DNA from: Reclinomonas americana ATCC 50394
Taxonomy: Eukaryota
DNA: 64,000 bases
Direction: 5' to 3'
Assembly (NCBI GenBank): GCA_048213135.1
Contig: PS015134.1
Span: forward strand, 62,001-126,000
In this document: one piece after another, positions 1,086-49,783 of the stretch
How the letters are laid out: every line of letters starts with the position of its first letter
Position numbering within the stretch: the stretch's first letter is position 1
Translations under genes and position numbers: made by a program
The notes under the pieces: generated by a model
What the model was told of the DNA's origin: nothing
What the model saw: only the letters and a program-made list of their open reading frames with translations
The model's database searches: none

Positions 1086-4000
1086 TCATATCTTCAACCC
1101 CGATGTGCAGTCGCCGCTCGTCGCACACGCGGTCGCCGTCGACGTGGCCACCACGCCACTCTTTGGTACACACTGTTTTGTCGACGTAGTGAATGTCCAC
1201 GATCCGCACGCAGTCAACTGCGAGCACCACAGCGAGCATGCTTGTGGCCCAGTTGTTGTCTTAATGGCCCACGTGAGATCGCCGCCGGGTCGGTCTGCAT
1301 ACCAACAAGAAGCCACATCAGTCACGAATCCCTCATCTCTCATCTTCCGAAGAGCATTCACACTCACCGGTGCTGGTCTGGAACCCGCTGCTGTCATACG
1401 CCACCACACTCGTCTTGCGTCCCGACACCAAGCAGAAATGCGAGCCACACACGTTGCTGGTTTCTGAATTGGCGGCTACAGCCGGCACGGTGCTCTGCGT
1501 GCAACTGTAGTGAGCTAGTCGATTCCTCACAAGTTCCTGCTTATTACCGATCACGTGCCTTCAACGTGCACACACTCACTCCATACGTATTCGATGCCGC
1601 AGCAGCATCCAGGAACGTCCACGATCGACACAGTGAGGACTGGTCACATAATTCACAACACCCGACCTCGCTGGCAACAGAAGGCATCACAGCCAGGATC
1701 GCGCCGCCAGGTCGATCAACTGCCTCGAACTGGCACACTTCCAACGCCGCTGCTCGATTTGACGGAGATTGAGACGCCGATGGCCGACAACGGTGCACAG
1801 TGCGGAATCTCAACGCAACGAGCCACAATTCCATTCTGTACTGTTGCACAACCAGTATTCGTTGCTGTACACGCACAGCAATCACCGTCAGCATCGCATC
1901 TCTCTGACTGACACCCACAGCTGCGCAGAACGTGCGAGCCTAACGAGGAAATGAACATGACTGAGTGAAAGACACAGCACCCGACCACTTTCTCTTCCGT
2001 GGAGAGCGAGAGATACCCCAACAGGCCGTGCGTATCCCTCTCCTCAATAAATGCACACTCCACCATTCGACGCACACGCACACACTTCTCCACCCCTGAC
2101 ATCTCTGCGCTACAATCTTCACTCATTAACGTCGACACTGCGGCACGCTCGCACGCGAGGCGCAAGAAGAATAACCAACCATCACCTACAACTTCCCTTC
2201 TACTCTTTCCTTCCTTTCCGTTTCCCTCCCTTCCCCACCCACGTCACCAGGTCTATGGGACGTGGACTTGCATGTGGAGCACAAAACGCCAAACAACCCC
2301 TCTCCTCTTCCCCCCTTCTACCTTCTCCCTTCCCTCCCCATTGCGCACCATACACAATCGCGAACTGCTTGGTGTACGTCAGCGCGCCATCGCTCACTTG
2401 CACAAACACTTGCAGTCGCCGACTCAGTGGCGGAGCCACCGAGATTGTCAGTTGATTGCCGCCAACCAGACTGAACAGAGCCGCATGCACACCGCCGACA
2501 ATGCTGAATGTCGGCGTCTGTCCCGTATTGAGATCCACCATGCTCAGTGTGCCCACAGTGAATGGCACCGTGGCACTCGAGTACGTCTGCGCACCCGACA
2601 GGAGAATGTCACTCGGCGCCACATTTCCTGCATACCTCACTCGTTTAGCCAACACACGCACACTGGCCGGATGCGTCTCTGCAGTCTCTCCTCCCTCACC
2701 AATGGCGAATGCGGAGAGCGCCACATACGAGCTGGTCAAAGTCCATCGCGTGCACAACTCGTAGGTGCCAACAGCTACACCTGCCGCTCCAATCGTCAGC
2801 GTGATGCTGTTCGAGCTGCCGAATGCACTGCTGATGCGCGTGGATCCGACGAGAAGCACACTGTGGGGACCACCGAATCGCGCCGCTCCCACACACGCAC
2901 CATCGGCAGTGCCACTCACGCCAGCCGAGCCACAGATGGTCGTCACCGCACCGGCATAGGTCACTCGTCGAATGGTTTTGTTGATAAATTCGCCCACATA
3001 CACCACTTGGTTCGTGGCATCCACCGCGATGCCCGTGGGTTGATTGAACGAGGCTGCTGCACCCGTGGCATTGGCACTCCCCGACACACCGTTTCCCGCC
3101 AACGTGGTGACCACGGCCGCGGAGGTGACGGCACGCACAGCGTGGTTTGTCAACTGCAGCACACAGAGTGTCAAGAGTCAGCAGAATTTAACCTGTGATT
3201 ATGCATGCCTGCACACTCACATCGGCGACAAACATCGTTCCCGTGGATTGGTCAATGGCTAGATTGGCAACACTGCGCAAGGCGAGTGTGTTTGATGAGT
3301 GAAGGGAGAGAGGGAGGGAGGGAGGGAGAGACAGAGAGAGCACAAGAACGCACAGTTTGAACTGAGCTGCCACGCCTGTGCCATCCGCAAAGCCGCATGT
3401 GGTGCCAGCAAACGTGGTCACTGTGGCTGCAGGTGTGATGCGTCGAATGCGGCAGTTGCTGCCATCATCATCGCGTGCGCGCACGAGAGTGAGCGAGAGA
3501 GCAAGAGGCCGCAAGAAGAATGGATTACACAATCGACAGAGAAGACGAGTTGCATGTAATGCATGACACAACTTGTAATCGCCCACATACAAGTTGCCCA
3601 TGGCGTCCAGGGCCAGCCCCTGTTGAGAGAGCGCACACACTCAGTGCGTCAGCGCAGCACAGCAGCAAGCAGCGCCCTCTGTCGACGTCGCGCACGCACC
3701 AATGGTCTATTGAATCTTGCACTTGCGCCCACGCCGTCGGTCGTTCCCCATAAACCAGCCGTGCCCGCGAAGGTGGAGACAGTGGCTGGAGAGACACCAA
3801 TGGCGGCGGCATAGGGCGACCACTCAAATGAGTTGGCGGTGCCACCAGCGACATTGTTGGGATTCACCCACGCGTTGAGAGTGGCCGCCGAGCCAGTGAT
3901 GTTGTTGGCGACGGCGGTGGTCACTGTTTGCGCGTCTGTGGGAAAGTATGCGCGAAATGAGATAATGAGATAGAAACGTGCACTCATTCGCAGTGCGACA

Positions 4001-18308: not shown

Positions 18309-18486
18309 AGAGAGGAAATCGAAAAAGAAGCAGGGTGCTTTTTATGGGTATCATGTTTTTTTCTCAGTTTCTTGTAAAATCGCCATATCGTCTGTTATCA
18401 ACCCTCAGAATGCGAGGATAGGTGTGGGGGAAGCAGTGAGTGTGAGCGGGCACAAAAAAGGAAAATAAATGGAAAAAAAAAAGAAG

Positions 18487-18558
18487 AGCTCGTACGTGGA
18501 GTCGAACCACGGCTACAGGATTCAGAGTCCTATGTCATAACCGTTAGACCATACGAGC
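18487..18558 (-). tRNA. trnQ-CUG: tRNA-Gln(CUG)
   Basis: 72-nt cloverleaf: acceptor GCTCGTA/TACGAGC, anticodon arm TAGGA-CTCTGAA-TCCTG, T arm CGTGG-TTCGACT-CCACG. A poly-T Pol III terminator follows. Confidence 0.95.
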
Positions 18559-24485: not shown

Positions 24486-26168
24486 TCAATCGCGCTGCGT
24501 TCCAGCTTGCAGCATCTCCGCCTCTTGCACCACAATATCTCGCACCTGCCGCAAAATGGCGTCACGTTCGGCGGGATCTGTCACCACCTCGACGCGCACT
24601 GTCGTCAGCATGTCGTCAGCGCGCTCCGTCACGAGCCGGGTCGAACCAATGGTCTTGTCTTTCAAAAACAGCGTAACAATACGCCGAGGATTGCTGCTGC
24701 CGCTGCTGCTGCCACCTGCTTCCGTTCTCAGCATGTCGCCAGCAATGCTTACCGTGTGCAGTGTCGACTGAGCCAGATAGTACACATTGTACCGGGCGTG
24801 CAGGTGGCGACTGAGGACACGCAGGTGTTTGCCGGGCAGTGACTCCAGCACGACGCCGTCGTCGTCGGCCGCCAAAACACCGCCGCGGAACAGTTTCACC
24901 GTCAAGTGTGCCTGCGAGTTGCCCGACGCAACAATTTCATACGTGTAGTTGTTGTACTGGCCAGCCAGCACCATACTGGCGACGTTGGCATTGTGATTGT
25001 GGGGCACCGTTTCGCTGGCGTCGTCTAACATGTGGATGCGGATCTGGTACGGCCATTCGTCGGCCTCTTTCGGCATCCAGTGCACGCGTGTCATCACGCG
25101 CCGCTCGGCGCCAACGGCCGCAGTCGTGTAGAGACGATCGACAAGCAAACTTGACGACAGGTGGCCGCCTTGCTGGAAAAACACGATCAGCGCCTCGCCA
25201 ATCTCGCGCACCCGGTGAATGTCGGAGGGCAGCAGCTTGCGAACGGACCTCGACTGCAGCAGCTCGGCCAAACGCCGCTTGGCCAGCTCGACATGTGATT
25301 CAATAATGGCCAGCTGCGTGAGACCCAACAGCGTTCGAGAGGCGGCACGACGCACGCCGCTAACCACGTCGTCCAACTGCTGCTGCCGCTGCGGTCGCGG
25401 AATCGATTCATAGCGCAACCGTCCGCGCACCTCCACCGGTGTCCGCGGTGCTGGCTCCTCCAGGTAGGCAGTGGTAACGACGCTGCCGCGTCGCACCAGA
25501 TGCACAATGGCTGTCGGCTCGTGCACCGTCACGCAGTACATGGTGCCAGCGGTGATGTGCTGACACCGTCCAACACCAACGCAGCTGCGACTCGGCTCGT
25601 CGAGGCGGCGCAGCTCCATGTCATCGCGGTTTTTTTCCGGTAAACGCTTCTCGCTGCCGACGATGACGAGGGAGCGAATCATCATCTCCGTGATGATCGA
25701 CACGGTCTTGATGGTGAACTCGCCAAAGAGCACCGTCATGTGGTGGTCGTGCGAGAGTGACTCGTCGGGCAACACGCGATCGACCTCGGGCATCTCGACA
25801 AACACCACATAATCTTCGGGATTGGCGCAGAACGGTGACGGCGAACACGGCGAGTCTTCCAGCGAGGAGTCAAAGTGGCTGCCCGGGAGCAGGCCCTCGC
25901 CACCAATGTCGTGCAGGGCGCAGTCATCTTCGGCACTCCGCAGCAGGTTGCGGATGTTAACGGTGAGTCGACGGCACGACAATTTGTCGTCGCAGGCAAA
26001 GGCATTATCGTACTTTGTCACCGCATGCGCGAGACGCTCGCTGGAATCAGCCAGCGAGCGCAGACAACGCACGACGGTGCGGAGAAGTGCGACCTCTGCG
26101 GCGGCTGTGGCAGGAAGGGGTGAGCAGAGGAGCCAGGAGTGCATGACAGAGAGAGAGAAAGACTGCAA
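24486..26168 (-). CDS. Largely intronless cupin-fold protein (one intact and one degenerate cupin-like domain)
   Basis: 560-aa ORF. The C-terminal IRIHML..VPHNHNANVASMVLAGQY..YYLAQSTLHTV..IVTLFL fits an HxH...H cupin. The upstream SHDHHMTVLFGEF..TAGTMYCV is a weaker copy. The true start may lie in a small upstream exon. Confidence 0.65.
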   Translation of the reverse strand: MQSFSLSVMHSWLLCSPLPATAAAEVALLRTVVRCLRSLADSSERLAHAVTKYDNAFACDDKLSCRRLTVNIRNLLRSAEDDCALHDIGGEGLLPGSHFDSSLEDSPCSPSPFCANPEDYVVFVEMPEVDRVLPDESLSHDHHMTVLFGEFTIKTVSIITEMMIRSLVIVGSEKRLPEKNRDDMELRRLDEPSRSCVGVGRCQHITAGTMYCVTVHEPTAIVHLVRRGSVVTTAYLEEPAPRTPVEVRGRLRYESIPRPQRQQQLDDVVSGVRRAASRTLLGLTQLAIIESHVELAKRRLAELLQSRSVRKLLPSDIHRVREIGEALIVFFQQGGHLSSSLLVDRLYTTAAVGAERRVMTRVHWMPKEADEWPYQIRIHMLDDASETVPHNHNANVASMVLAGQYNNYTYEIVASGNSQAHLTVKLFRGGVLAADDDGVVLESLPGKHLRVLSRHLHARYNVYYLAQSTLHTVSIAGDMLRTEAGGSSSGSSNPRRIVTLFLKDKTIGSTRLVTERADDMLTTVRVEVVTDPAERDAILRQVRDIVVQEAEMLQAGTQRD

Positions 26169-26647
26169 CGTTGTGTGTGTGTGTAGGGAGTGGCAGCACG
26201 GACAACAAGGAGGAGCACAACAACAACAACATGTGACGGGTCGAACCTTGTTCAGTGGTTGCAGCCATGTGCTCCGAAAAAGCGATAGAAATGCAACAGA
26301 GCGAAGAAAACCCGGCAGACAGATATCTGATGATGATGTATCTGACGACAGGACTCGTCATGACCGGAAACTTCGACTCGTTCAAGAGACCCCACCTGCT
26401 GCGGCTGGCCATTATGGGCCATGGACTCGATGGGGGATGGCTGGCGATGGGCTTGATGATCGATGGCTTCAATTGTTGTTCCGATATCGATTCTCGTGCG
26501 TTTCAATTTCGCTGGTGAGATCCAGCTTGCCAATCCTGCAGGCTGCTCGTTGCCTTACATCGCCTGCTTCCTATCGCCGGATGTGTTGCTTGTCAGCATG
26601 CCACACACATTCCAGCGATTCGCTTTGCGTCTACATAAGCGTTTCCA

Positions 26648-27446: not shown

Positions 27447-30400
27447 TTAGCGCTGAATCTCGACCTTCCTGCGCGCCGTGCCAATGTCGCACGAGTTGAC
27501 CTTGGCAGCAAAGCGCAACGACGACACACTCTCCAGCAGATGCAGCATGGCCGGCGAAATGTTGACAAACATGAGCGTCTTGGAGTTGCCGCCGAGCGAC
27601 TTTTGCAGCAGGTAGGTGAGGCGCGAGTTACGGTACGGCACGTGGGTCGACTTGTTGGCCAGTGCGGCAATCACATCGCCCAGGCACGACAGCGACTTGT
27701 TAATGTGCTGCGTCTCCAGACGGCGGTCGCCCGTGTGTTGCGTCTGCTTCAGGCGCTCCGAGCCGGCCAAATCGATGAGGTTCAGCAGGCCCTCGGAGAC
27801 GGCGCCGGTCTGCAAGGGGGGAAAAGAGGAAAGGGGAAAAGAGGGAAAGGTAAGTAAGGGGATAAAGGGAAAGGGGGAAGGGGAAGGGGGATAAAGGGGA
27901 CGAGGGGAAGGGCACAGGGGTGAAGAAGGACAAGAGGTGATAGAAAGGGAAGAGGAGAGAGAGAGAGAGCAGAGGGAGAAATGGCAGAGGTGAGAGAGTA
28001 AGGACACATGTGGGAGACAAGAACAGAGAAAAAGGGCACGCGAGAGAAAGGACACACGAGGAAAATGGCAGAGGGAGAGGAAACAACGGGCGATGTGAGA
28101 GAAAAGCACAGACGACAAAGGGCAGAGGCAAGACAGGACAGAGGAGAGACAAGACATAGTAAGCAGGATGATGTGAACGAACAACATGGAGAAGGGAAAT
28201 GGCAAGAAAAAAGTGAGGAGGAGGCGAGAATGGATAGAGGTGCGGAAAAAGAAAGAGCACGAGTACGACACACAGCAGATACAACACGTTGAGGAGCACC
28301 AGCATCGCAACACCCTCGGGAAGTAAAGAAGTGAACGCCGAGGAAAGCGAGCCAATGTTAGTAGAATGCCCCTCTCTCCCCCTTCTCCCTCCCTCCAACC
28401 TTCTCCCTCTCCACTATCTTCCTCCCCACACACCTGATGATTGTGTCCCTTGATGTACAGCTGGAACACAGAGTGCGAGCGCGACGAGTTGGCATTGAGC
28501 TTGGTCGCGGCCCACGAACGCTGCCGACTGGCGCGGATGAGCAAGTCGTGCACCTCAGCCGGATCACGCACGGGCACTGCAGTGGATGAGGAAGAGGAAA
28601 TTGAGTGCGCTGCACAACTCAGCAGGGCAAGCGAAGAGCAGCACGCAACAGAGTTCGAGATTGGAGACCGACACACTGCCGTCGCCATTCTGCTTGATGT
28701 CGTACTTGAGGTTGGTGCCGGGTTCGGCGAGCAGATCGCGAATCTGCTCGTTGTAGATTTCCAAAAAGCTGCGCAGAGAGGGAGGCGAGTGAGAAAAGGA
28801 GCAGAGATAAGGACAGAAAGTGTTCTCTCGCTCACCACTCACTTTCACCGCAGCTCTCTCTCATCGCTCACTTCTCGCTCTCTCGCTCTCACTCTCACCG
28901 CTCGCTTCCCAGCTCACTCTCGCCGCTCGCTTCCCAGCTCACTCTCACCGCTCGCTTCTCTCTCTCTCTCTCTCTCTCTCTNNNNNNNNNNNNNNNNNNN
29001 NAGGGGGAAAGGGTGAGCAACAGGGAAAGGAGGGGGATTGAAGGGAAAGGCAAAGAGGGAGGGAAAGGGAGAAAAAAGTGACAGTGTGTAAGAATGGTAA
29101 TCACATTCCCTCTCCTGTTCTCTCTGAGTGAGTGAGCGAGTGTGAGCGAGAGAGGAGAGAGAAGAGAGAGAGGAAAGAGCGCATCTTCTCTTAATCCGCC
29201 TCGCTCTTTCTCTGAGCGAGTGAACGTGTGCTTGCGTGCGGAGAGGAAGTAGTCTCTAATCGCAGTCTTCTCTCACCCTCATTCTTTGTGTGCATGTGCG
29301 AGAGATGGAGAAGGAGAAGCAGCACACAGACCTGCAAGTTCTTCAGTCTCTCTCACACTGTGTGTGTGAGTGAGAGGTCTCTTGTGTCACGTTCTTTTCA
29401 CTGTCTTCTCTCTCTTCCTCCCTTTCTCATGTTCCTTGTGTGCCTACGCGCAAGTGCGTGTGTGCAAGAGCGCGTCGAGAGAGAATAAGAAGCACAGAGA
29501 CCTGTCTCAGAGGTCTATCTCTCTAGGTGCACAAGTGTGTGAGTCAGTGGAGTGAGAGGTCTCTTTTCTCACGTTTCTCTGTCGTGTGAATGAGTGAGAT
29601 CTCTCTCCCTTCTGCTCCTTCTCCTTCTCTCACTCTCTGACTGTGCAAGAGCGTGTTGAGAGAGAGAGAGAGAATAAAGCACAGAGACCTGTCTCAAGTT
29701 CTCTCTGACTGTGCACGAGTGAGCGAGAGGTCTATCTCTCTCAGTGTGTGTCAGTGAGGTCTCTTTTCTCACGCGTTTCTGTCTCCTCCTCGCTCTCTGA
29801 GTGTTCGTGTGAATGAGCGAGAGGTCTTACTCTCTCCCCCTTCTGTTCTCCCTCTCCTTCTCTCACACTCTGACTGTGCAAGAGCGTGTTGAGAGAGAGA
29901 GAGAGAATAAAGCACAGAGACCTGTCTAAAGTTCTCTCTGACTGTGCACGAGTGAGCGAGAGGTCTATCTCTCTCAGTGTGTGTCAGTGAGGTCTCTTTT
30001 CTCACGTTCTTCTCTCCCTCTCTGAGCGTGTGAATGAGTGAGAAGTCTTACTCTCTCCCCCTTCTGTTCTCCCTCTCTTTCTCTCACTCTCTGACTGTGC
30101 ACGAGTGTGTTAAGAGAGAGAGAGAGTGGAGTGAGACCGTTATGGCACGCGCACACACGAGTGTCAACTGTGCAAGTGTGTGTGTGCGTCATAGTGCTTG
30201 TGTAACGCAACACTCTCAATGGCGGCAACGCTCGAGGCTGATGAGGTGGCGGCGGTGGCAGAGGCAGACGAGGGGCGCGCGGGCACTCCAGAAACGCTCA
30301 TGCCCTGTGTGTGCACAACGTGAGACAACAGACTCTGTGTGTGTGTGACGACTTTCTTTCTTTCTTTACGCACTGTCTGTGTGTGTGTGTGCTCTCGTTC

Positions 30401-30805: not shown

Positions 30806-30877
30806 GCTCGTATGGTCTAACGGTTATGACATAGGACTCTGAATCCTGTAGCCGTGGTTCGACTCCACGTACGAGCT
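30806..30877 (+). tRNA. trnQ-CUG: tRNA-Gln(CUG), identical to the copy at 18487-18558
   Basis: Same 72-nt sequence, followed by ttattttttatttttt. Confidence 0.95.
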
Positions 30878-31201
30878 CTTATTTTTTATTTTTTCCCTCG
30901 CCAGCGCAGTGATCGCTCATGGCCCCAGTGCACTACCGAGCATGAGGAATGTTGCGTGGCATGACGGATCTGTGCTCGAAAGTGAAAAATACGGAAATGT
31001 CAATATCGATATTGGCAAAATCGCCCAGCACCTCTATGCCATCCAGCAAGCAGCTGCAGTCTTATTCTCTAAGTCCAACTGCACCTGCATCCGACACCGG
31101 CACTTGCATCCGACACCGCCACTGAGGGACGTCGCGTATTTCGAATTCAAAAACTCGAGAACTGCTGAACAACAACCAGCAAACAAGCAACAGCTGTCTT
31201 G

Positions 31202-34200
31202 ATGACCGAGTTCAACCGTATCCAAAACATCAACACAGACACCAACCTTGAGGCAGCAGCAGGTTCCTTGTGGGTGTGTTCGCTCTCGGAGCTCCGATCG
31301 CGAACAAGTCGAGAACTGCGCATGCGATCCTCACCGAGAATCATACACCTCTGTACTCCACAAATCATGAGCATCACAAACGAACAGGCACGCACAGTTC
31401 AACCACGTGCACGCTGATGAACGGTTCTCGACGTCGGCATATGCATGCGCTGCGCATGCAGTTGTTCGAATTCGAAGGTTTGAGAGTGAATGCACATACA
31501 CACAGGAAAACCTACCGCTGTCCCCAGACAGGTGTTTGTGTTGATTTCTCTTGCAGAAACGCCAGCATGTATGCCGTCTCGACTTTTTCTCGCTTGNNNN
31601 NNNNNNNNNNNNNNNNTCCCTCATTCGTGAGAGCTGGCAGTTGTCTCTATTCTTCTCTCAGAGTCACTGTGTGCCTCTTCGGAGTGGGTTTGGATGCTGT
31701 TGTCTCTTAGCCTCTCTCACTTGCGGAGAGCGTCAAACAGAGAGTTGTCATCTCCACATGTTCATAGTCTCTCTCCTTCTCTCAGAGTCACTGTGTGTCT
31801 CTTCAGAGAGTGGCTTTGCATGCTTGACTCTCAGTCGTTCAGTTCTCTCGCTTGCTCACTGAGAACGAGAGAGAACGGAGAGTGTCAAACAGAGAGTTGT
31901 CACGTCGTCTCCATTTATTCGTTGTCTCTCTCCTTCTCCCAGAGGCACTGTGTGTCTCTTCGGAGAGTGGGTTTGGATGCTGTTGCCTCTCGGTCATTCA
32001 GTCGCTCTCTCACTTGCTCACTGAACAGAGAGCGTCATACAATGAGTTGTCTCCTCATCTCCATATGTTCATTGTCTCTTTTCTTCTCTCAGAGTCACTG
32101 TGTGTCTCTTCGGAGAGTGGGGTTGGATGCAGTTTCCGCCTGCTCTAGTCGTTCAGTGTCTCTCACTTGCTCACTTGGAACGACAGAGAGTTGTCTCGTC
32201 GTCTCCATTTATTTCATTGTCTCTCTCCTTCTCTCGCTCTCTCATAGTCACCGTGTGTCTCTTCGGAGAGTGGGTTTGGATGCAGGTGCCTTCCCTCCAC
32301 CGCACTCGATACGTCGTGAGTGATTGCATGTTCCTCTTGTCGTCTCACGTCTCCCTCGTTCCCCCGCGCTCATTGAGACCGATCGAGAAGCAGAGTCGTC
32401 CGGTGCTCAGAACGAGAGAGAAAAGTGGAACGGGAAATTGAGTTCTCTTGTTGTCTCTCTCGTTTGCTCGTCTCTGTTTCTCTCTCGCTCATTGAGAGCG
32501 TCAGACGGAAGGCACTTGTTTGTTCCGTTCGCTGAGAACGAGATTGCCGAAGTTGCCTCGTCGTTTCAGTTTCCTGTTCTTTGAGTCTTTCGCGCGGGAG
32601 AAGCAACAGGCCAAGTGCATGCTTGTAGTTCTCTCTCTCTCTCTCACTCTCTCTCAACCTCTCTCCCCTTGTCTCACCCTCAGGTATTCACCAACGTCGA
32701 CACCCTTGTCGAGTTCACCACCACACTGGAGGACTGCGGCGCGTGGTTGTACACCTCGGCGCGTGTGGAGCACACGTACACGTCGGTGAATCGGGCGCCG
32801 GATCATCAGAAGCTGACGGTGACTGTCGACTGGCCGCAGGCGAGGGCGAGCTGGTTTGATCGCTTGTTTGGCAGGCTGGTGAGGGGGGAGGAAGGAATGG
32901 ATGAGAAGCATGTGAACCCTGCACGTGGATGTGTTTGCCCGTTATGCTGTTGATCTCTCTCGGTATTCTCTATCTCACTTTCTCCCTTTGCTATTTCTCT
33001 CTTTCTCGTCCCTTGTTGCTCTCTCTCTCTCTCTCATCCGTTCTTTTTGTGTGCGCTGGCTGCCTTTCCTCCAACTGTCTCGCTATTCGTCTCTTTCTCC
33101 CTCTCGTTCCCGTTTCTCTCTCTCTCTCTCATTCTTTCTTATGAGACAATTGCGTCATACTTTGCGTCTCTTTCCCCTCTCATTCACTGATTTCTCTCTC
33201 CATCTCATTCTTTCGTTTGTGTTCATTGCGTGTCGTTCCTCATCTGTCTCCATGCATCTCACTCCCCATTTCGTTCTCTTTCTTTTTCGTTCTCCTACCT
33301 CCCTGTCGTTCTCCCTCCCTGTCGTTCTCCGACCTTCCTGTCGTTCTCCTACCTCCATCTCGTCATCCTACCTTCCTATCTTTCTCTCTCTCTCTCTCTC
33401 TCTTGTTCTCCCCCTCTCTCTCTCGTTCTATCTCTATCTCGTTCCCCTCTGTTTCGTTCTCCTACCTCCCTCTGTCCCCTTCTCTCCCATTTCTCTCTCT
33501 ATGTATCCGCCTTCATTCGCGCATTCTCTCTCTTTTTAAACACTCATCGCAGTTCGGCCAAACCTACCCCTCCGCATCGCTGTGCCTGCGCATTCCCGAG
33601 AGCGCCGATCTCGACGTGCACTCCTCCAACGGCGATCTCTTTCTCACGGGCGCCTTTCGCGGTGGTCCGTCCCTCCGCCAATCTCCTCTCACCGACACTG
33701 CCTCCCTCACCCTTGCGTGTCACAGGCAATCTTAACATAAGAGCGCACGACGGCAGTGTCAACTGCGATCAGCTGTGCGGTGTGTCGCACAACGCCAATG
33801 TCGAGGAGGGCGTCTTGTCGATTGGCCTGCTCGACGGCGCGCAGAATCAGGTTTGTCAGCATGTAATCCATACTCGGCGAGATAGCTGGCAGAGAGAGAA
33901 TGAGAAAGAGAGACGATGGGAGGCAGGGAGAAAGGAAGAGAGGGAGAAAGAGGGAAAGGAAGAATCGAAGGCGGGAGAGACAGAATAAGCAGGAAAAGGA
34001 AAGAGAAACTGTTGACAAGAGACAGCGAGGGTCGCGCGGACAGAAGCAAATGCACGCGCGTGAGATTAGAACCAGCATTGGAAGCCACGTGCTCCCACAA
34101 GAAAATGCACTCCGACATTGAAACTCAGAGCACAGAGAAGAGGGTAAGGGGAGAGAGTGGGAGAGAAAACGTGAGGGACGTGTGTAAGAAGTGCTTGTTG

Positions 34201-35561
34201 CAGAACGAATTGCTTTCGTTGTTGTCGTCTCACATCTCCCTGCTCGACAGCTCTCGAGTGACGAGCGCAACATCGAGATTGGTCGCATCGAGGGCGGCAA
34301 CACCATTCTGCGCTCCGACGAAGGCAGCATCTTCTTCGAGCTCACGGAGAACGGCAACGTCGATGCCAAGACCGAGGAGGGGCATGTGGAGGTGCGTGCG
34401 GGGGAGGAGAAGGGTGTTTGTAATAGGGCAGTCGACGTCTCCTTTCCCCACCCTCACTTGCGTCAATCTCACTTTCACCTCCACTTCTTCCCAATTTGTT
34501 GTGGCCGTTTCTTGTTGTTACCCTGCTGCGTTCTCTTTTCTGTGTCCTGTCGCCCGCGGTGAACGTAGATCGTGGCGATCTCATTGTACAAGCGTGTCGT
34601 TGAAGGGTGCGTTCTCAGGCGCCTTAACCACCTGTGAGCACGCGAAAGTCAGTGAGTCCCTTCTTCTGTCTCCTTCAGTGCTTTTCCGGCCTTCCTCTTC
34701 TTACATGTGCTTTGAAAATACCTGTTGACAGACAAGAGCATGTAGTGTATTCATTCCTCGCTTGCATGACTATTGCACTTGCACCCTCTGACCCTTGTTC
34801 GCACCGTTGCACTGCGACATGCTTGCAGACGTCAAGCTCTCGCTCTTTGTCTCGCACTGTTGCGCATTAATGGCAAGCAACATGGCACGCAGAGCGTGAC
34901 CGATTCTACAATGTTGGCAGTCCGACGAGCTTGCAAGCACCTCTCTCTCTCTCTCTCTCGCTATTACATTCTTTGCTGAGCAGTCTNNNNNNNNNNNNNN
35001 NNNNNNCACCGAGAACGTTTTTTTCTTTTTCGAAGTGTTTGCAGAAGTCTGTCTTCGCTTCCTGTCAGTTTGTCTCTCTTTTTCTCTGTAGCGCATCCGT
35101 TGCAGGGCCCTCGACGAGCAGACGCTCCACTGCACGCACATTGTTAATGCTTTGCTTTCATCGAGCTCATTCCCCTCCTCCCTTCCCCCCTCCAAGGCCA
35201 ACCTCGTCAACAACCGCTTCGGCACAATCCGCCTCGAGTCCGTCGAGCGCGACGTCCTCCTGCTCACCAACCCCCTCTGCCGCGCCAATCTGCACGTGCT
35301 GGGACCGCTGAGCACCCTCAAGTATCCAAGAAAACGCATCTCGTTTGATGACGATTGTTGCGTTCCGTGCTTCCATGTGCCGTGCATTTCTTCCCCACTC
35401 GTCTTAACAGTGCTCCGCCCGCAGTGCACACTGAGGGCGAGGCAGCAGAGGCGCACAACCACAAGAAGCCGCACCTGGGTCGCATGAATGGCGGCGACGC
35501 GAGTGGCAAGCGTGAAATCACGCTGAAAGCCCGCACCATGATTATCCGCATGGGCGGCTGA
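31202..35561 (+). CDS. DUF4097-like (putative adhesin, beta-strand repeat) protein, multi-exon
   Basis: Exons LCLRIPESADLDVHSSNGDLFL, NLNIRAHDGSVNC, NANVEEGVLSI and TILRSDEGSIFFELTENGNVDAKTEEGHVE show the xxSxNGxI beta-repeat pattern. The gene ends HLGRMNGGDASGKREITLKARTMIIRMGG*. The start is tentative. Confidence 0.65.
31620..32290. repeat. Intronic tandem repeat, unit about 140-160 bp, about 5 copies
   Basis: Recurrent ctctcagagtcactgtgtgtctcttcggagagtgggtttggatgc. Confidence 0.8.
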
Positions 35562-35695: not shown

Positions 35696-36672
<977 letters not shown>

Positions 36673-36917: not shown

Positions 36918-39900
36918 ATGTCGGTGTGTGTGTTTGTTATCTTCTCTCACTTCTCTTCCCCTCCTCCTTGTGTGTGCTTACTGCTCTTGTTTGACACAGT
37001 TCTCTGTGAACGTGAGTGCGGCGCATGATTCGTCGCTGTCGGTGGTGGTGGAAGGCTTGTCGGGCATGTCCACTCTCGCGGACTTGCTGCGCGATGCCAC
37101 TCGCCTGCTGCGGGAGAAGAATGGAGATGACGGGATGGAGATTGTGGGAGTGGAGAAGCCGATGCAGTTTGACATCAACCTTGCTGCTGGGGTGCCTCTC
37201 GCAGCATTCGGCATCAACTCTTCCACTCATCTCGTCGTCTGTGTGACTCTTGGCGTGGCGTCGAGTGGACGGAGTGGGAGTGGGAGTGGAAGGTATGTGT
37301 CTGGGATGTGTTTGCGAATCATCTCTCTGCGCCAAACATGCAAGTCACTCTCATGTCCTCGCACAGCAACTCGGAGCGAGTGACTCGGTGTGTTTCCTCT
37401 CTTGCCCTCGTCAGAATCTGTCTCCCTCCCTTGTTCTTCCACTCAAATCGAGTCGATGCTGACTGTGTTGTGTGCATGTGCAGCATGATCAACTCGCAGC
37501 GCATCAACATGGCGTTTGAGGTGGTGGAGGAGGCCGCGCGCCTGCGCTGCCAAAGCGCTCTGGCGCAGTTCAGTCGCGATCATTCCGACTTTGATGTGCG
37601 GGCGTGGGTTTCGACTTTCACGCCTGCCGGCATGGATGCGACAGCAGTGAAGTTGTGGCGTGATCGGCATGCGCCATACAAAGGATGGCAGGTCAAGCTT
37701 TTCAAGGAAGTGTATCCGGTGGTGTTTGACTGGCGCGCGGCATTCGATGCCGATCTCACATCCGACCCCTCTTGTGACGCATTTGACGCGACGGCTCTCA
37801 CCTCCATAATGCTGTATGGCGGCTTTGTCGACGAGGACGGTCGCAAGCTGCGGCTGATTGACGATGCCGATGAACGCAAGGCTGTGGAACACCTGCGCGA
37901 GGTACGAAACGAGTTGGTGCACGGGTCATCGGCGTGGACAGAGGCCATTGTGAAAGATAATCTCGACGACGGTGGCGTGTTTCTCTCACTTCTCTACAAG
38001 CTGCACCTTCCTGCTGCTACAGTTGACCAGTTGGCAACACGGATTCGTGAGGCCCGCCACCTCGACTTCAGCGTCAGCACCTTCGAGGAGCGATTGCATC
38101 GACTGGCTGTGCGTGAGCTCTCGTTCTACCAACACGACGAGAGTGTGCGCAAGGACATGGAGATGTATGTGCCACTGCTGTGCTCCCGTGAGCGTGACGT
38201 TTCGTCGAGTGACAAGTTGACAGATCTGTTGGCGGAGGTGGATGCTTTCCTCTCTGACACCAACACCAACCAGCATGTGCTGGTGCTCTTCGGTAACAGT
38301 GGAGCTGGCAAGACCACCACCATGTCCGTACTGGCCGAGCGAGCTTGGCGGCAGTGGCAGGCGGGAGAGGGTAGACGAGTGCCTGTGCGTGTGCCTCTTG
38401 GTGCGCTGCGCAATGCTGATGAGCGATTGTTGGAAGAGGCACTGGAGCGACTGTCACCTGAATTGGGATTCAGCGAGACGGATGTGCGACGGTTGAAGGA
38501 GGAACCACTACTGTTGTTGCTTGACGGGTACGATGAGTTGTACCGTGGTGTGAATCTGTTTGTCAAGAACCAATTGGATGCGTCTGTGTGTCCCAACTTG
38601 AAGGTGATTATCACCTGCCGCGGCGATTATGCACTGACGGCACTGGGTAGTGTGGCGCAGTATCGACGGTATTTTGCACCGGTGGATGCACGAGGACAGT
38701 TGTGCATGCAGCAGCTGATGGAGCGACACATTGCACCATTCAGTCCGGAGCAGATTGAGAAGTACTGTGAGCGACTGGTACAAGTGGGCGTTGATGATGA
38801 AGTGCGATGGTCGACTGCCGAAGAGTACATTCGTGCACTGAAGGGTGTGCATGGACTGGATGCACTGGTGTCGAATCCGTTCCTGTTGGCTGTGGTGGCT
38901 CATGTGTTGCCAGAGTTGGTGGTTAGTGGTGTGCAGCGACCTACTCGGTGTGATGTGTTTGACCAATTCATTCGACAGTGGATCGAGAGAGAGCAGGACA
39001 GGCAGACTTGCCTTGGTGCGACGCGTGTGCCGAGTGAGGAGACGTGCCTCGCTTTCTGTGAGGGACTGGCACGGTTGATGCATGAGAGGAATGCGGTGCG
39101 TGTGTCTGTGACAGAGAGTCGATCAGGTGACGACGGAGAGGAGGATGACGACTTTGGTGGTGCACCACTTGAGTTGCGACGAGTGCAGGAGGGACCATTT
39201 GACAAGTTCCTCGGTCACAAGAACCAGCATGTGCGAGTATGCTGTCCGATTGTGCGACGATATGGTACGACGCAGTGGGGATTCGTGCACCTGTCGTTGC
39301 TTGAGCACTGTGTGGCACGTCATGTGTTTGCGTTGGAGACGTGGGATGCAGACAGGATGTTGACTGTGCAAGATGTGCAGCAGCATGTGTTGGCAGTGCA
39401 ACTGCTGAACGATCGACCATCACTGGTGGAACAGTTGGCAGAGGTGGTGCGACGGTCTCCTATACTGCAAGCGAGACTGTGGGAGGTGATGGAGTTGTCG
39501 CGTGAGGTGGATGAGGAGCGGGTGGTGACGGCAGCAGCGAATGCGGCGACGGTGCTGTGCGCTGCTGAAGTGTCGTTCAGTGGACGAGATCTGTCAGGTG
39601 TGAGAGTGCGGGGTGCGGATTTGAGAGACGCGGTGATGCACAGGACGGTGTGGAGGGGAGCGGATTTGAGAGACGTGAATGTGTGCATGGCGTATGCGAG
39701 GGAGGCGGATTTCAGCGAGGCTGATGTGAGGGGTGTAAAGTGGCCGAGGAAGCCGATGATGAGGCACACTATGTGGGTGACATCTGTCGCTATCACTCCC
39801 GATGGTCTCCACATCGTGAGTGGCAGCTGGGACAACACAGTTAGAGCTTGGTCACTGGCGAGTGGGGAAGAAGTGAGTCGGTTCGAGGGACACACTGGAC

Positions 39901-41201
39901 GAGTAATGTCAGTCGCCGCAACCCCCGATGGCCGGCATATTGTGAGCGGGGGCGAGGACAAAATAGTGCGAGTGTGGTCACTGGCGAGTGGGGAGGAAGT
40001 ACGAAAGTTGCAGGGTCACCATGACTGGGTACAGTCTGTTGCCGTCACTCCCGATGGTCAACACATTGTGAGTGGAGGTCAGGACAGCACTGTCCGGGTC
40101 TGGTCACTGGCGAGTGGTGTGGAAGTGGTGCAGTTTGACGATCGCACTGACAAAGTGTGGGCCGTCGCTGTCCTTCCCGACAGTCAACAGGTGGTGAGTG
40201 GGAGTTGGGACGACACTGTTCGTTTGTGGTCACTGGCGAGTGGAACAGAAGTTCGACGATTTAAAGGTCACGGTGGCTCTGTGTGGTCCCTTGCTGTCAC
40301 GCCCGATGGTAAGCACATTGTGAGTGGTGGAGCTGACGGAGTAGTGCATGTGTGGTCACTGGCAAGTGGGGAGGAGGTGCGACGATTCGAGGGACACGCT
40401 GATAGGGTGTGGTCGGTTGCAGTCACTCCCGATGGGCAGCACATTGTCAGCGGAAGCCAGGACAAGACTATCCGGGTGTGGTCGATGGCGAGCGGTAAGG
40501 AAATGCGCCGCTTGGAGGGTCACACTGACTCGGTGAACTCTGTCTCCGTCCACCCCAACGGTGTGCATATCGTGAGTGGGAGTGGAGACACTACTATTCG
40601 CTTGTGGTCAGTGTCGAAAGATGGTGAAGAGGCTCGAAGGTTGGAGGGGCACACCAACGTGGTGTCCTGTTTCGCTGTCACTTCCGATGGACTTTTCATG
40701 GTGACCGGGAGTGAAGATAGAACACTGCGCGTGTGGTCTGTGGTGACCGGAGAGGAGATGCGACGGATGGATGGCCATGCCTACCCTGTAGTTTCTGTCG
40801 CTATCACTCCCAACGGTCAGCACGCCGTGAGTGGTAGTGAAGCTGGGGAGTTGCGAATGTGGTCACTTGCAACCGGCGATGAAGTGTGGCATTGCGAGTT
40901 GAAAGTTTGGGGACTTAAATCCGTAGCCGTTACTGCCGATGGCACATGTGTTGTTGCGGGCTTCAAGGATGCCGCTACGCGCATGTGGTCACTTATTGAC
41001 GACTCTGAGAAGATATGGGATCCTGAGACTCAGTTGCACTCACCCGCAGTGTCAGAATTTGTCATTCGCCTCTGTGGCGACACAATCGTCATTGTTCCTC
41101 GCAATCGACGCGGCGAGCCAGTCGAGCGCATTTTCGGCTCGTTTCTGACTGACTTTACTGGCGCACTGGGAATGGATCAGGGCGATGTGACTTCGCCTTG
41201 A
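36918..41201 (+). CDS. NLR-like STAND protein: ubiquitin-like + HEPN + NACHT + pentapeptide repeats + 10 WD40 repeats
   Basis: Three exons: MS | Ubl exon about 37000-37292 | 3.7-kb exon 37484-41201. HEPN: FDATALTSIM..VEHLREVRNELVHG. Walker A LFGNSGAGKTT and Walker B LLLLDGYDEL. Winged-helix-type WGFVHLSLLEH. Pentapeptides FSGRDLSGVRVRGADLRDAV. Ten 42-aa WD40 units. Confidence 0.92.
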
Positions 41202-41385: not shown

Positions 41386-41473
<88 letters not shown>

Positions 41474-41778
41474 TAGAGAGCGCGCGCGTACGTACGTACG
41501 TACGTACGTAACGTAACGTACGTACGTACGTCGTACGTACGACGTACGTACGTACGTACGACGTACGACGTANNNNNNNNNNNNNNNNNNNNNNNNNNNN
41601 NNNNNNNNNNNNNNNNNNNNNNNNNNNNNNNNNNNNNNNNNNNNNNNNNTACTAACTACTCTACGTACACTACCTACGTACACCTACTACTCCGTACTAC
41701 GTACTACTCTCCTCTCTCTCTCTCTCTCTCTCCTCTCCTCCTCTCTCTCTCTCTCTCTCTCTCTCCTCTCCTCCCTCC

Positions 41779-46496: not shown

Positions 46497-47524
46497 NNNN
46501 NNNNNNNNNNNNNNNNNNNNNNNNNNNNNNNNNNNNNNNNNNNNNNNNNNNNNNNNNNNNNNNNNNNNNNNNNNNNNNNNNNNNNNNNNNNNNNNNNNNN
46601 NNNNNNNNNNNNNNNNNNNNNNNNNNNNNNNNNNNNNNNNNNNNNNNNNNNNNNNNNNNNNNNNNNNNNNNNNNNNNNNNNNNNNNNNNNNNNNNNNNNN
46701 NNNNNNNNNNNNNNNNNNNNNNNNNNNNNNNNNNNNNNNNNNNNNNNNNNNNNNNNNNNNNNNNNNNNNNNNNNNNNNNNNNNNNNNNNNNNNNNNNNNN
46801 NNNNNNNNNNNNNNNNNNNNNNNNNNNNNNNNNNNNNNNNNNNNNNNNNNNNNNNNNNNNNNNNNNNNNNNNNNNNNNNNNNNNNNNNNNNNNNNNNNNN
46901 NNNNNNNNNNNNNNNNNNNNNNNNNNNNNNNNNNNNNNNNNNNNNNNNNNNNNNNNNNNNNNNNNNNNNNNNNNNNNNNNNNNNNNNNNNNNNNNNNNNN
47001 NNNNNNNNNNNNNNNNNNNNNNNNNNNNNNNNNNNNNNNNNNNNNNNNNNNNNNNNNNNNNNNNNNNNNNNNNNTGTGTGTGTGTGTGTGTGTGTGTCTC
47101 CCTCTCTCTCTTGTGAGTCCAATCCAAGATGCACATCCTGATGACTGCACTTGTCTCACACGCACACACTATATGCACACGTCACAGAGGTATCTCACCT
47201 CCCTTCTCCACAGCCCCTCCCTACGTCTCTCTCTCTCAGTCTCTCAGACTCTCTCTCTCTCTCTATGCACACGTCACTGCAGACGTCTCGCCTTCCTTCT
47301 CTCTCCCTTCCCCCTTTACCCCTTTACCCCTTCCCCCTTTGCCTTCCCCCCTTTTGCCTCGTTCCGCAACGTTCATCAAACTCCGTGTACCCACACAACG
47401 TACACCTCTCCTCCCTCAACAACTCCAACTCATGATCCACACCCGCCGTCGCCGCAGCACCCGCCCGTGCAGGCGCCCTCATCGCCGGAGGACCCATTGA
47501 CGACGAAGAAGAAGAAGAGGCCAT
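42104..47524 (-). CDS. TFIIB-family factor with a C-terminal extension
   Basis: Zn ribbon CTLC..|..DGDSVCLRCG split by a 2.1-kb intron. B-reader EWRNFDEEEDRSRVG. Cyclin repeat 1: IVSTLLMLACRKHNVTRSIKEM. Repeat 2: SRFSAKMRLP..ACIMFV..AVGITAETIRQVCK. About 100 further residues follow. Confidence 0.85.
45440..47290. repeat. Direct plus inverted repeat array inside the long TFIIB-like intron
   Basis: gagacaagtgcaggtcgcctggatgtgcatcttggattg (about 45490) is the near reverse complement of ccaatccaagatgcacatc..ctgcacttgtctc at about 46010, 46315 and 47120. Confidence 0.75.
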
Positions 47525-48163
47525 TCTCAGCTCTCAGTCACTTCTGTTGCAATCAAACGCGAATGGGACACTGTTAGTTTGACGTCACACTCTCTCTCCC
47601 CAGCAAACACCTATAGTCACCTGTTCCCCTTTGTGCACGTGCTGCATTTGCAGCTTGCATTTCTTGCGCAAGAGCGCCGTCCGATATCGATATCCTCGAC
47701 GTTCGACGTCGAGTCATGATCAGCGCGCTCAATAAAGCATCGCCCAGTTGCATTAACAACAAACAAAAGACTTCATTCACCACATGCGACAATTGTCCAC
47801 AAACCCCTTGCTGGCAATGACCTGGGCACACCAACAAAACAAAACACTTCTTTCAGTCCAAAAATCCCTTGCTATTGCCGCGCCAACGATGACCAAGGCA
47901 CCAACTACCATAGTCTTCTCCAAACAGTCATCTTCCCTTAAGCTTTCAGGAGGCACAAGCAATCGCGTGCTGGCTGGTGTGGTCCAGGACTTCGAATCAT
48001 GGCGCAAAAGTGATCATGATTCAGCATTCATAAAAACAAATAACACACAACCTCTTCTCCAACAGCCATCTTTCCTTTCAGGAGGCATATGCATGTAAAA
48101 GCTTTGCACAACCAGCCCATTCTTCTCTCTTGTCCTTCTCCTGCACTTCCCCCTTCCTTTCGG

Positions 48164-49783
48164 ATGTCCAACAACGACCCCCCTCTCCCCCCCTCCCTCC
48201 TCTCCCCGCTCCTCCACGCCACCTCCACCTACGACGCCCACGACTACGCCCTCGCCGCCACCCTCCTCTCCTCCTGCATCACCGCCCTCCGCGAGGCCGG
48301 CCACGGCGACCACGAGCACACCCTCCGCGCCTCACACACGCACGGCCTCGCCCTCCTCTCCACTGGCGACTATGCACAGGCAATCACCGTGCTGCAAGAG
48401 ACACTGGAGAGGCGGCATCGCATCGACGGAGCGGATCATCGCGCCTCACTGCTGGTGGCCGGCGACTTGGGAAGTGCACTGTACACATGCGGTGGTCGTG
48501 TGCTGGAGGCAGTTGCGGTGCTGCGGGACACAGTGGAGCGACAGCAGCGCGTGTTCTCGGTGCACGTGGAGGACGAGGAGGCGCAGGCACTGAATACATT
48601 GCATGACTTGGCGCTGGCGGTGGAGGCGAGCGGGGATCGCGTGGCGGCGATTGCCATCAATCGGGATGTGCTACGGCGGCGTGCGCAGCTGTTGGGCGAC
48701 GATCACCCGCTGACCATGGTCACGGCGCATAACTTGGGCGTGAGCTTGTCGCGCGAGGGAGGCGAGTGGAGGGAGGAGGCGTTGCGCGTGTTGCAGGAGA
48801 CCATGACGCGTCGGCTGGGCGTGCTGGGTGCGGACCACCAGCACACGCTATTGACGGCGGCCGAGGTCGGCACGGCGTTGCTGGAGCAGGGGCAGCACGC
48901 CGACGCTGTAAACGTGCTGCGTGTGGTCTACGAGCGGCAACTCGCGCTGTTGCCGCCGTACTGTCGCGATGTGCTCGTCACGCATCGCTCGCTGGCCGAG
49001 GCGCTGACGGCCGTGGTCAATGTCGACGATCCGGTCACGAGTGGCGAGGCGGTGCGGGTGAGTCGTGAGCTGGTGCATCGTGAGCATCGTTCGGTCGGCC
49101 CCGATCACGTGCAGGCGCTGATCAGTGCGCACAATTGCGCGGTGCTGCTGATGCCCTTCCCCGAGCACGCCCCAGAGGCACTGCTGCTGTTCGAGGACAC
49201 GCTGGAGCGGCGGAGGAGGGTGCTGGGCGTCGACGACCGCTGCACCCTCAGCACGGCCACGCACTTTTGCATCCTATTACGCGGGTTGCCGGAGCGGCAT
49301 GCGGAGGCCGTGGAGTTGCTGCGCGACACCGTGCAGCGACAGCAGAGGGTACTGCCGGAGAACGACACCGACACGCAGCGCACCACCAATTTCCTCTGCC
49401 TCGCCCTCAACGAGGCGGGTCGGCACGAGGAGGCCGCCGTGCTGTGTCGGGACTTGCTGGCGTGCCGGCGGCAGGTGCTGGGCGACGACCACGTGGACAC
49501 GCTCACCAGCGCCTTTAATCTGGCACTCTTTCTGCGCGGAACCGCCGAGGCCGTGCAAATGCTCGAGGACACGCTGGAGAGATCGCGGCGCGTGTTTGGC
49601 GAGAATCACTGGCTGACGGCGAGTGTGGTGCGGCAATTGGAGGGGGTGGCGGTGGTGGGAGAAGGAGGAGGAGTAAGAGGAGAAGAAGGAGAAGAGGGGG
49701 TTGAGGAAGGAGGAGGTCCGGAGGGGGAGGAGGGGGGAGAGAGGATGGAGGAGGGGGTAGAGAACGCGGGCGTGGATGTATGA
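48164..49783 (+). CDS. Intronless stand-alone TPR protein (KLC/NB-ARC-TPR-type repeats) with an acidic tail
   Basis: About 11 repeats of the type RRVLGxDHxxTLxxAxNLA (e.g. RAQLLGDDHPLTMVTAHNLG, RRQVLGDDHVDTLTSAFNLA). No NTPase motif in the ORF. Confidence 0.88.
   Translation: MSNNDPPLPPSLLSPLLHATSTYDAHDYALAATLLSSCITALREAGHGDHEHTLRASHTHGLALLSTGDYAQAITVLQETLERRHRIDGADHRASLLVAGDLGSALYTCGGRVLEAVAVLRDTVERQQRVFSVHVEDEEAQALNTLHDLALAVEASGDRVAAIAINRDVLRRRAQLLGDDHPLTMVTAHNLGVSLSREGGEWREEALRVLQETMTRRLGVLGADHQHTLLTAAEVGTALLEQGQHADAVNVLRVVYERQLALLPPYCRDVLVTHRSLAEALTAVVNVDDPVTSGEAVRVSRELVHREHRSVGPDHVQALISAHNCAVLLMPFPEHAPEALLLFEDTLERRRRVLGVDDRCTLSTATHFCILLRGLPERHAEAVELLRDTVQRQQRVLPENDTDTQRTTNFLCLALNEAGRHEEAAVLCRDLLACRRQVLGDDHVDTLTSAFNLALFLRGTAEAVQMLEDTLERSRRVFGENHWLTASVVRQLEGVAVVGEGGGVRGEEGEEGVEEGGGPEGEEGGERMEEGVENAGVDV

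Follow-up and report, generated by a model that had tools for sequence, protein, structure and literature searches.

The 64,000-nucleotide stretch of Reclinomonas americana ATCC 50394 analysed here (the window: positions 62,001 to 126,000 of contig PS015134.1, assembly GCA_048213135.1, forward strand) carries at 36918-41201 of its + strand a gene that is an intact STAND/NLR-like receptor of a eukaryote with GT-AG introns. For the protein as a whole, we lean slightly towards an order in which a probable header exon is followed by a helical head, likely a divergent HEPN ribonuclease (RNase) of the Swt1/Abi2 kind, and then by a NACHT NTPase domain, pentapeptide repeats and ten WD40 units. From NACHT onward this domain order is read directly from the translation, as is an RxxxxH motif in the head, and amino acids (aa) 93-170 of the head match the HEPN_Swt1 family above chance. 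The original prediction for this locus, made from the sequence alone, had proposed an NLR-like receptor with a HEPN RNase effector and a ubiquitin-like header, acting in defence or cell death. The features of the gene, with positions counted along the window, are as follows.

36918..36923, + strand: putative start mini-exon, ATG TCG, with A at -3 and a GTGTGT donor next to it; the phase-0 donor would join the header frame.
36924..36999, + strand: putative intron 1, 76 nucleotides (nt), CT-rich, with CTTAC about 18 nt ahead of a CAG acceptor.
37000..37292, + strand: header exon of 97 complete codons and 2 further bases; may encode a beta-grasp/ubiquitin-like domain and, after it, a Gly/Ser linker.
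37293..37483, + strand: putative intron 2, 191 nt, with an AAG/GTATGT donor (slash at the junction), a pyrimidine tract and CTGAC about 22 nt ahead of a CAG acceptor.
37484..41201, + strand: main exon with 1238 codons, opening with the ATG at 37485 and closed by the stop at 41199-41201; codon score +0.195 per codon.
37761..37994, + strand: HEPN-like core, aa 93-170, inside an all-helical N-terminal domain of aa 1 to about 240 (helices from a low-confidence model).
37905..37922, + strand: RNELVH, aa 141-146, candidate catalytic Rx4H motif in which a polar residue follows the R.
38277..38657, + strand: NACHT NTPase domain (Pfam PF05729, E 3.6e-10, 40.3 bits against a cut-off of 26.7).
39567..39674, + strand: pentapeptide repeats (Pfam PF00805, E 1.3e-6, 28.3 bits against a cut-off of 20.2).
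39753..41015, + strand: ten WD40 units, the sensor propeller or propellers (Pfam WD40, E 2.9e-93, 302.8 bits, 9 stretches).

The window is eukaryotic scaffold DNA of 55% G+C, in which 25 runs of N take up 3045 bases, and a single + strand frame is open over 37173-41201. Within the NACHT domain, a pattern search (GxxxxGK[ST] for Walker A, hhhhDGxDE for Walker B) found both nucleotide-binding motifs, the Walker A GNSGAGKT at aa 270-277 and the NACHT-type Walker B LLLLDGYDE at aa 343-351. The pentapeptide region also gave weak matches to NCBIfam pentapeptide models at the same place. Counted by pattern, the WD40 array comprises ten units with a period of 42-43 aa, whose pairwise identity averages 49% (range 31-74%) and whose differences fall mostly at about 8 positions of the 42-aa unit. 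The intact NACHT, the pentapeptide repeats and the ten WD40 repeats that the original prediction had placed in the long exon were thus recovered, the Pfam matches all lying above their cut-offs, and with them the assignment of the gene to the NLR/STAND architecture. Bacterial contamination was considered as a source of the gene and dropped, because its codon usage is common to the neighbouring genes and the eukaryotic genes on either side carry introns.

Both flanks of the gene hold microsatellites, (CA)n/(GT)n and (CT)n, at 36130-36260 and at about 41400-41500, together with runs of N. The assembly is fragmented around the gene, so that additional upstream exons could still exist. The upstream open reading frames (ORFs) over 31631-34728 contained no Pfam family and gave no sign of more exons.

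Several lines of evidence indicate that the head is probably a HEPN-like domain. In a Pfam search of aa 1-240 at E<=10, the sole family returned was HEPN_Swt1 (PF18731), at aa 128-149 with E 0.085. All three families matched among the 5027 models of PADLOC bear HEPN (CARF_HEPN twice and RTasHEPN), over aa 122-158 with E 0.005-0.025. A feature search of the ESM Atlas placed HEPN_Swt1 (0.81) and HEPN_DZIP3 (0.78) as the top clusters, and the ten best family-bearing matches of the head all fell within one family or clan; scores below 0.9 in this search count as leads only. We also built a custom HEPN_Swt1 profile from a set of 401 Actinomycetota genomes, 28 of which contain a PF18731 match at E<=0.001; 30 matching places yielded 29 non-identical domains. 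Against this profile, aa 93-170 scored 15.4 bits, a value reached by none of 3000 composition-preserving shuffles (maximum 10.8), while the reversed sequence scored -0.5 and motif-less 240-aa segments elsewhere in the protein scored at most -0.6 or gave no score.

The RxxxxH motif lies exactly where it had been predicted, as RNELVH. In the reference HEPN_Swt1 domains, R and H of the motif are invariant (29/29) and N follows the R in 22 of the 29. Within the aligned span, nine columns are conserved in at least 20 of the 29 references, and the query matches five of them: D101, R141, N142, H146 and L167. Within and around the motif, L137, R138, V140, R141, N142 and H146 are each the commonest residue of their reference column, and E139 ranks second in its own. 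At a place where the alignment is weak, D101 falls on a D kept in 24 of the 29 references, in a column that may be that of the catalytic acid. In the low-confidence single-sequence AlphaFold2 (AF2) model the head is all-helical and the motif closes helix 127-145 ahead of a loop. According to Anantharaman et al. 2013 (PMC3710099), the residue after the R in HEPN motifs is typically N, D or H, a further acidic residue ahead of the motif is conserved in many HEPN families, and the motif is located at the end of helix 3, leading into a loop. In a divergent HEPN RNase of this kind, the candidate layout would be D101...R141-N142-x3-H146. The position of the head also counts in favour of HEPN, because the HEPN-NACHT and HEPN-STAND proteins described so far likewise place the effector N-terminal to the NTPase.

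The header lies upstream of the main exon, and it is very probably coding, because its codon signal is high and is bounded by the proposed splice sites. Codon usage was scored as log-odds, trained only on the NACHT-WD40 part of the gene and on a neighbouring TPR gene. On this scale the header reaches +0.194 per codon, or +18.8 nats over 97 codons, a total that 0.38% of the 8128 non-genic windows of 97 codons attain, and 0.68% of the 1318 stop-free ones. In the header frame the score falls to -0.201 per codon just upstream of the proposed acceptor and to -0.334 just past the proposed donor, and the main frame scores -0.085 per codon ahead of the ATG at 37485. The first 22 header codons score +6.8 nats, while the first in-frame ATG comes only at codon 23. 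Because these codons look coding without an ATG of their own, a start further upstream is needed, and a putative first exon of two codons is the nearest solution to the missing header start.

That splicing occurs in this organism is evident from a kinesin motor gene in the window (27447-28838, - strand; Pfam E 9.4e-53), in which a stop-free stretch of about 624 nt between conserved motifs is an intron that the plain ORF list reads through. Its donor is CAG/GTGTGT, its body is CT-/GA-rich with a CTTAC element, and its acceptor is TTGCAG; both introns proposed for the receptor gene share this type of signal. The original prediction had joined the header to the long exon by two short introns, and much of that model stood: the header frame is open, the donor and acceptor strings that it quoted are present (ATGTCG/GTGTGT, CACAG/TTC, AAG/GTATGT and TGCAG/C) and the phases are compatible. 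The junction itself, however, is not unique. Between header and main exon, as many as 44 GT..AG pairs are stop-free and frame-compatible, so that phase compatibility is uninformative, and even the best donor, AAG/GTATGT at 37293, has three compatible acceptors, with intron ends at 37366, 37414 and 37483. On balance, we consider it likely that the header is spliced to the main exon.

It is fairly unlikely, by comparison, that the header stands outside the protein, with translation starting at the ATG at 37485 and with 37000-37292 forming a 5' untranslated exon, an upstream ORF, a separate small gene or a part of some isoforms only. This arrangement draws on that ATG lying one base past the acceptor, which fits a translation start without the header, and on the reference proteins, in which no more than about 15 residues precede the HEPN_Swt1 domain; given these two observations, a headless protein, or a mixture of headed and headless isoforms, is possible. 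The multiplicity of junctions, the lack of any homologue or family for the header and the weak codon score of its second half (+0.025 per codon) point in the same direction. By contrast, codon usage as gene-like as that of the header is rare among non-genic windows and turns negative right outside the proposed splice sites, its first 22 codons score well ahead of any start of their own, a strong AAG/GTATGT donor ends it, and the main exon is the next coding sequence on the + strand; each of these favours a header that belongs to the protein.

Whether or not it is part of the protein, the header may be ubiquitin-like, a tentative call that falls a little short of even. Its AF2 model has a beta-beta-alpha-beta-beta order at low confidence (predicted local distance difference test, pLDDT, 48.5), its named neighbours in the ESM Atlas are all ubiquitin, Rad60-SLD or DUF2604 (0.85-0.87, leads only), its 'recognition' value in the same resource is in the range of real proteins, and the pattern of its C-terminal strand presumably recalls ubiquitin. 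Weighing against this fold, Pfam returned no family for the header at E<=1, phmmer against the PDB gave one unrelated match (E 0.82) and no ubiquitin-like (Ubl) protein, and Foldseek with the low-confidence model found no Ubl protein and nothing at E<=0.001, its top matches being kinase N-lobes at E>=0.4. Searches for homologues of the header found none. A Ubl (DUF2604) profile drawn from prokaryote genomes was dropped, as only 1 of 261 genomes matched.

The more specific proposal that the header belongs to the Ubl headers of Crinkler-type conflict proteins did not hold. Pfam contains a model of the Crinkler N-terminus, and the header has no Pfam match. The LxLFLAK motif that defines the Crinkler headers of Phytophthora (PMC5289972) is not visible in the header sequence, and a Crinkler link is not supported. 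If the header is Ubl, there would be precedents in sacsin, which joins Ubl and HEPN in one protein (PMC3710099), and in Crinklers, which carry a Ubl header on conflict effectors (PMC5289972), from whose headers the present one differs in the two respects just given.

As for the head, a number of results speak against HEPN. The motif alone is at chance level: when the N-terminal 240 aa were shuffled 20000 times, 53% of the shuffles contained RxxxxH and 10% contained R[NDH]xxxH, and the whole protein holds nine strict RxxxxH strings, six of them inside WD40 blades. Since RxxxxH is so frequent by chance, it is the HEPN-likeness of the surrounding context that decides, and RxxxxH by itself was discarded as evidence. 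The match to Pfam HEPN_Swt1 does not reach the gathering cut-off (13.6 bits against 27.5), and the head is for that reason kept out of PF18731, although the matches suggest the Swt1 HEPNs as its closest clade. Most of the custom-profile signal comes from the 16 residues at aa 135-150 (9.6 bits alone, with about 0 for each flank alone), and aa 1-92 have no similarity to the profile, 737 of 2000 shuffles reaching their score. The AF2 model is poor (pLDDT 47.8). Homologues of the head were absent from a phmmer search of 1.84 billion representatives, whose single match was a spurious 10-fold repeat protein, as well as from a word-indexed search and the metagenome scan; nor did the head match anything in a PDB sequence search or Pfam HEPN_DZIP3. 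A search of PHROGs likewise gave nothing. With the low-confidence model of the head, Foldseek returned nothing at E<=0.001 and no HEPN match, its helical-repeat matches being at chance level. The profile comparison by hhalign aligned aa 93-170 to HEPN_Swt1 with P 5.9e-4, albeit at a probability of only 28.9%. The HEPN RNase head of the original prediction therefore survives at the level of motif and profile, but below curated thresholds, without support from the fold and without detected homologues.

These results would fit an N-terminal domain of 240 aa that is a lineage-specific helical adaptor or regulatory domain, with the likeness of RNELVH to HEPN arising by chance or as a decayed remnant, and with signalling by recruitment of partners. 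The Death-fold or helical heads of other NLRs signal in this way. The frequency of the motif in shuffles, the score below the Pfam cut-off, the confinement of the profile signal and the missing fold support all lend weight to an adaptor, as does the existence of inactive HEPN versions, for example in Swt1 (PMC3710099). We nevertheless regard an adaptor as unlikely: no shuffle reached the custom-profile score, three independent libraries or methods (Pfam, the ESM Atlas and PADLOC) indicate HEPN and nothing else, and D, R, N and H all stand at conserved columns. A HEPN-like head remains our preferred reading.

The part of the protein that follows the head has detectable relatives. Over aa 200-700, the NACHT region matched three distant proteins. 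The closest (P0004; 29% identity over the NACHT region, E 1.9e-28) has a kinase head on a NACHT-pentapeptide-WD40 body, the second (P0005) continues from NACHT-pentapeptide-WD40 into ankyrin repeats, and the third (P0006) has a different build, HD-NACHT-FGE; P0004 and P0005 lack the head of the present gene. No paralogue was found within the 64-kb window. These relatives have a prokaryote-like look. The similarity of the NACHT-pentapeptide-WD40 core to metagenomic proteins with other heads (kinase, ankyrin) fits head-swapping on a common chassis as well as a possible bacterial origin. That the gene is instead a housekeeping or regulatory STAND NTPase, such as a scaffold in RNA processing or signalling, is improbable. 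In its favour, HEPN domains also serve core RNA processing, as in Las1 and Swt1 (PMC3710099), TEP1 is one example of a eukaryotic NACHT-WD40 protein without a role as immune receptor (10.1101/2022.07.19.500537), and no paralogue expansion is seen in the window. Against it, orthologues of a housekeeping gene should be easy to find, whereas the searches gave none for the head and three distant matches only for the NACHT region, and head-swapping on the same chassis together with similar WD40 blades of focal variability is typical of conflict systems.

Among known systems, the bacterial NACHT (bNACHT) and antiviral STAND proteins share with the present gene the order of head, NACHT and repeat sensor. 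Bacterial NACHT proteins have HEPN as one of their enzymatic heads (Kibby et al., 10.1101/2022.07.19.500537), WD40 sensors occur in bacterial STANDs (PMC13581612), and it is metagenomic proteins of such build that come closest in sequence to the NACHT-pentapeptide-WD40 part. Unlike these, the present gene sits in a eukaryotic, intron-bearing context, possibly with an extra 5' exon, and is no more than 29% identical to its nearest relative.

The animal HEPN-NACHT proteins resemble it in having a HEPN head on a NACHT NTPase in a eukaryote. In the account of Anantharaman et al. (PMC3710099), cephalochordates and cnidarians have HEPN domains of the CXorf38 family (Swt1-like) in fusion with NACHT and Death domains, those of the DZIP3/hRUL138 family are joined to NACHT, CARD, LRR and others and have expanded in Nematostella, oyster and the unicellular Capsaspora, and an N-terminal HEPN with a STAND ATPase and TPR is listed for bacteria; the authors read these fusions as coupling sensing to RNA degradation. 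The partners differ, being Death, CARD, ankyrin, LRR or TPR in the animal proteins and pentapeptide plus WD40 repeats here, and as HEPN_DZIP3 is unmatched and HEPN_Swt1 below its cut-off in the present gene, we claim membership in neither animal family.

For the motif region, the best sequence match is to bacterial proteins of the Ava_2192 type, which carry an N-terminal HEPN_Swt1 and a DUF499 AAA+ ATPase. They too have HEPN at the extreme N-terminus ahead of an NTPase, which is DUF499 there and NACHT here. The query lacks the W and the A that the family has within the motif and the F at column 118, and its 15.4 bits compare with 26-168 bits for true members.

The fungal HET-E/NWD proteins, to which the gene had been likened, also place internally similar WD40 repeats after NACHT, repeats that vary mainly at a few positions. 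The likeness does not extend to the head, as Pfam found no HET domain in aa 1-240, and the present gene has pentapeptide repeats between NACHT and WD40. Its WD40 repeats are moderately rather than nearly identical, and their variability is much less extreme.

Established STAND NTPase and HEPN biology, extrapolated to this protein, would yield the following mechanism. The WD40/pentapeptide part would hold the protein off until a ligand is bound; binding would then lead to nucleotide-dependent oligomerisation of NACHT, which would bring the N-terminal HEPN domains together, and the paired Rx4H sites would form an active, metal-independent RNase. Cleavage of RNA would stop an invader, or would kill or arrest an infected or incompatible cell. 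We infer a role in defence or cell death from this likeness. The header may contribute regulation, localisation or an adaptor function.

The remainder of the window holds further features. Seven kb downstream of the receptor gene, an ORF at 48044-49783 (+ strand) matches TPR_12 (E 4.5e-38) and TPR_10 (E 2.9e-35) and has the best codon score after the NLR gene. In NB-ARC/STAND proteins, repeats of the TPR_10/TPR_12 kind frequently serve as the sensor; the sequence upstream of this ORF showed no NTPase domain, though 46497-47074 is a run of N. Two tRNA-Gln(CTG) genes, at 18486-18558 (- strand) and 30806-30878 (+ strand), have identical Rfam scores (62.8 bits) and lie in opposite orientation about 12 kb apart, and may be an inverted duplication; an Rfam scan of the window found nothing beyond these two. 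On the - strand, 62436-63215 matches the N-terminal ARM repeats of KDM8-like proteins (E 2e-16), with a candidate CT-rich intron of about 57 nt (AAG/GTCTCT...CTTAG) after the matched stretch. An open frame of 623 codons at 24489-26357 (- strand) has gene-like codon usage (+77 nats) and no Pfam family; it could belong to the kinesin gene as its tail or be an orphan. Finally, an ORF at 2203-3177 (- strand) gave weak matches to NHL and arylesterase-type beta-propellers (E 1.7e-4 to 9e-3).

The novelty that the original prediction had implied was set too high, since HEPN-NACHT and HEPN-STAND fusions are published for animals and bacteria (PMC3710099; 10.1101/2022.07.19.500537). The design is thus a known one and, with such fusions already catalogued, the gene opens no new category. 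A full-text literature search on HEPN NLRs in protists gave no match, and none of the passages found on HEPN-NACHT-WD40 proteins and HEPN-NLR effector domains describes the present protein. What is new is a sequence-orphan member in a unicellular-type eukaryote, possibly with an added header exon.

A bolder and rather unlikely reading, as a whole, is that a eukaryote took over a bacterial-type HEPN-NACHT-pentapeptide-WD40 receptor, to which the addition of an exon then gave a ubiquitin-like header; this header would gate or target the RNase head, for instance through coupling to the ubiquitin system or through localisation. Were this so, the gene would represent a sequence-orphan, lineage-specific family of Ubl-HEPN-NLR death receptors, and use of the internal ATG would yield headed and headless isoforms. 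More generally, if the head is an active HEPN RNase, the gene would place a sensor-NTPase-RNase design, on a prokaryote-like chassis, in a unicellular eukaryote outside animals and fungi, and it would be a convenient single-exon candidate for ligand-triggered HEPN activation. It would also bear on how often eukaryotes have borrowed ready-made bacterial STAND immune receptors, and on how these were later modified, possibly by the addition of exons.

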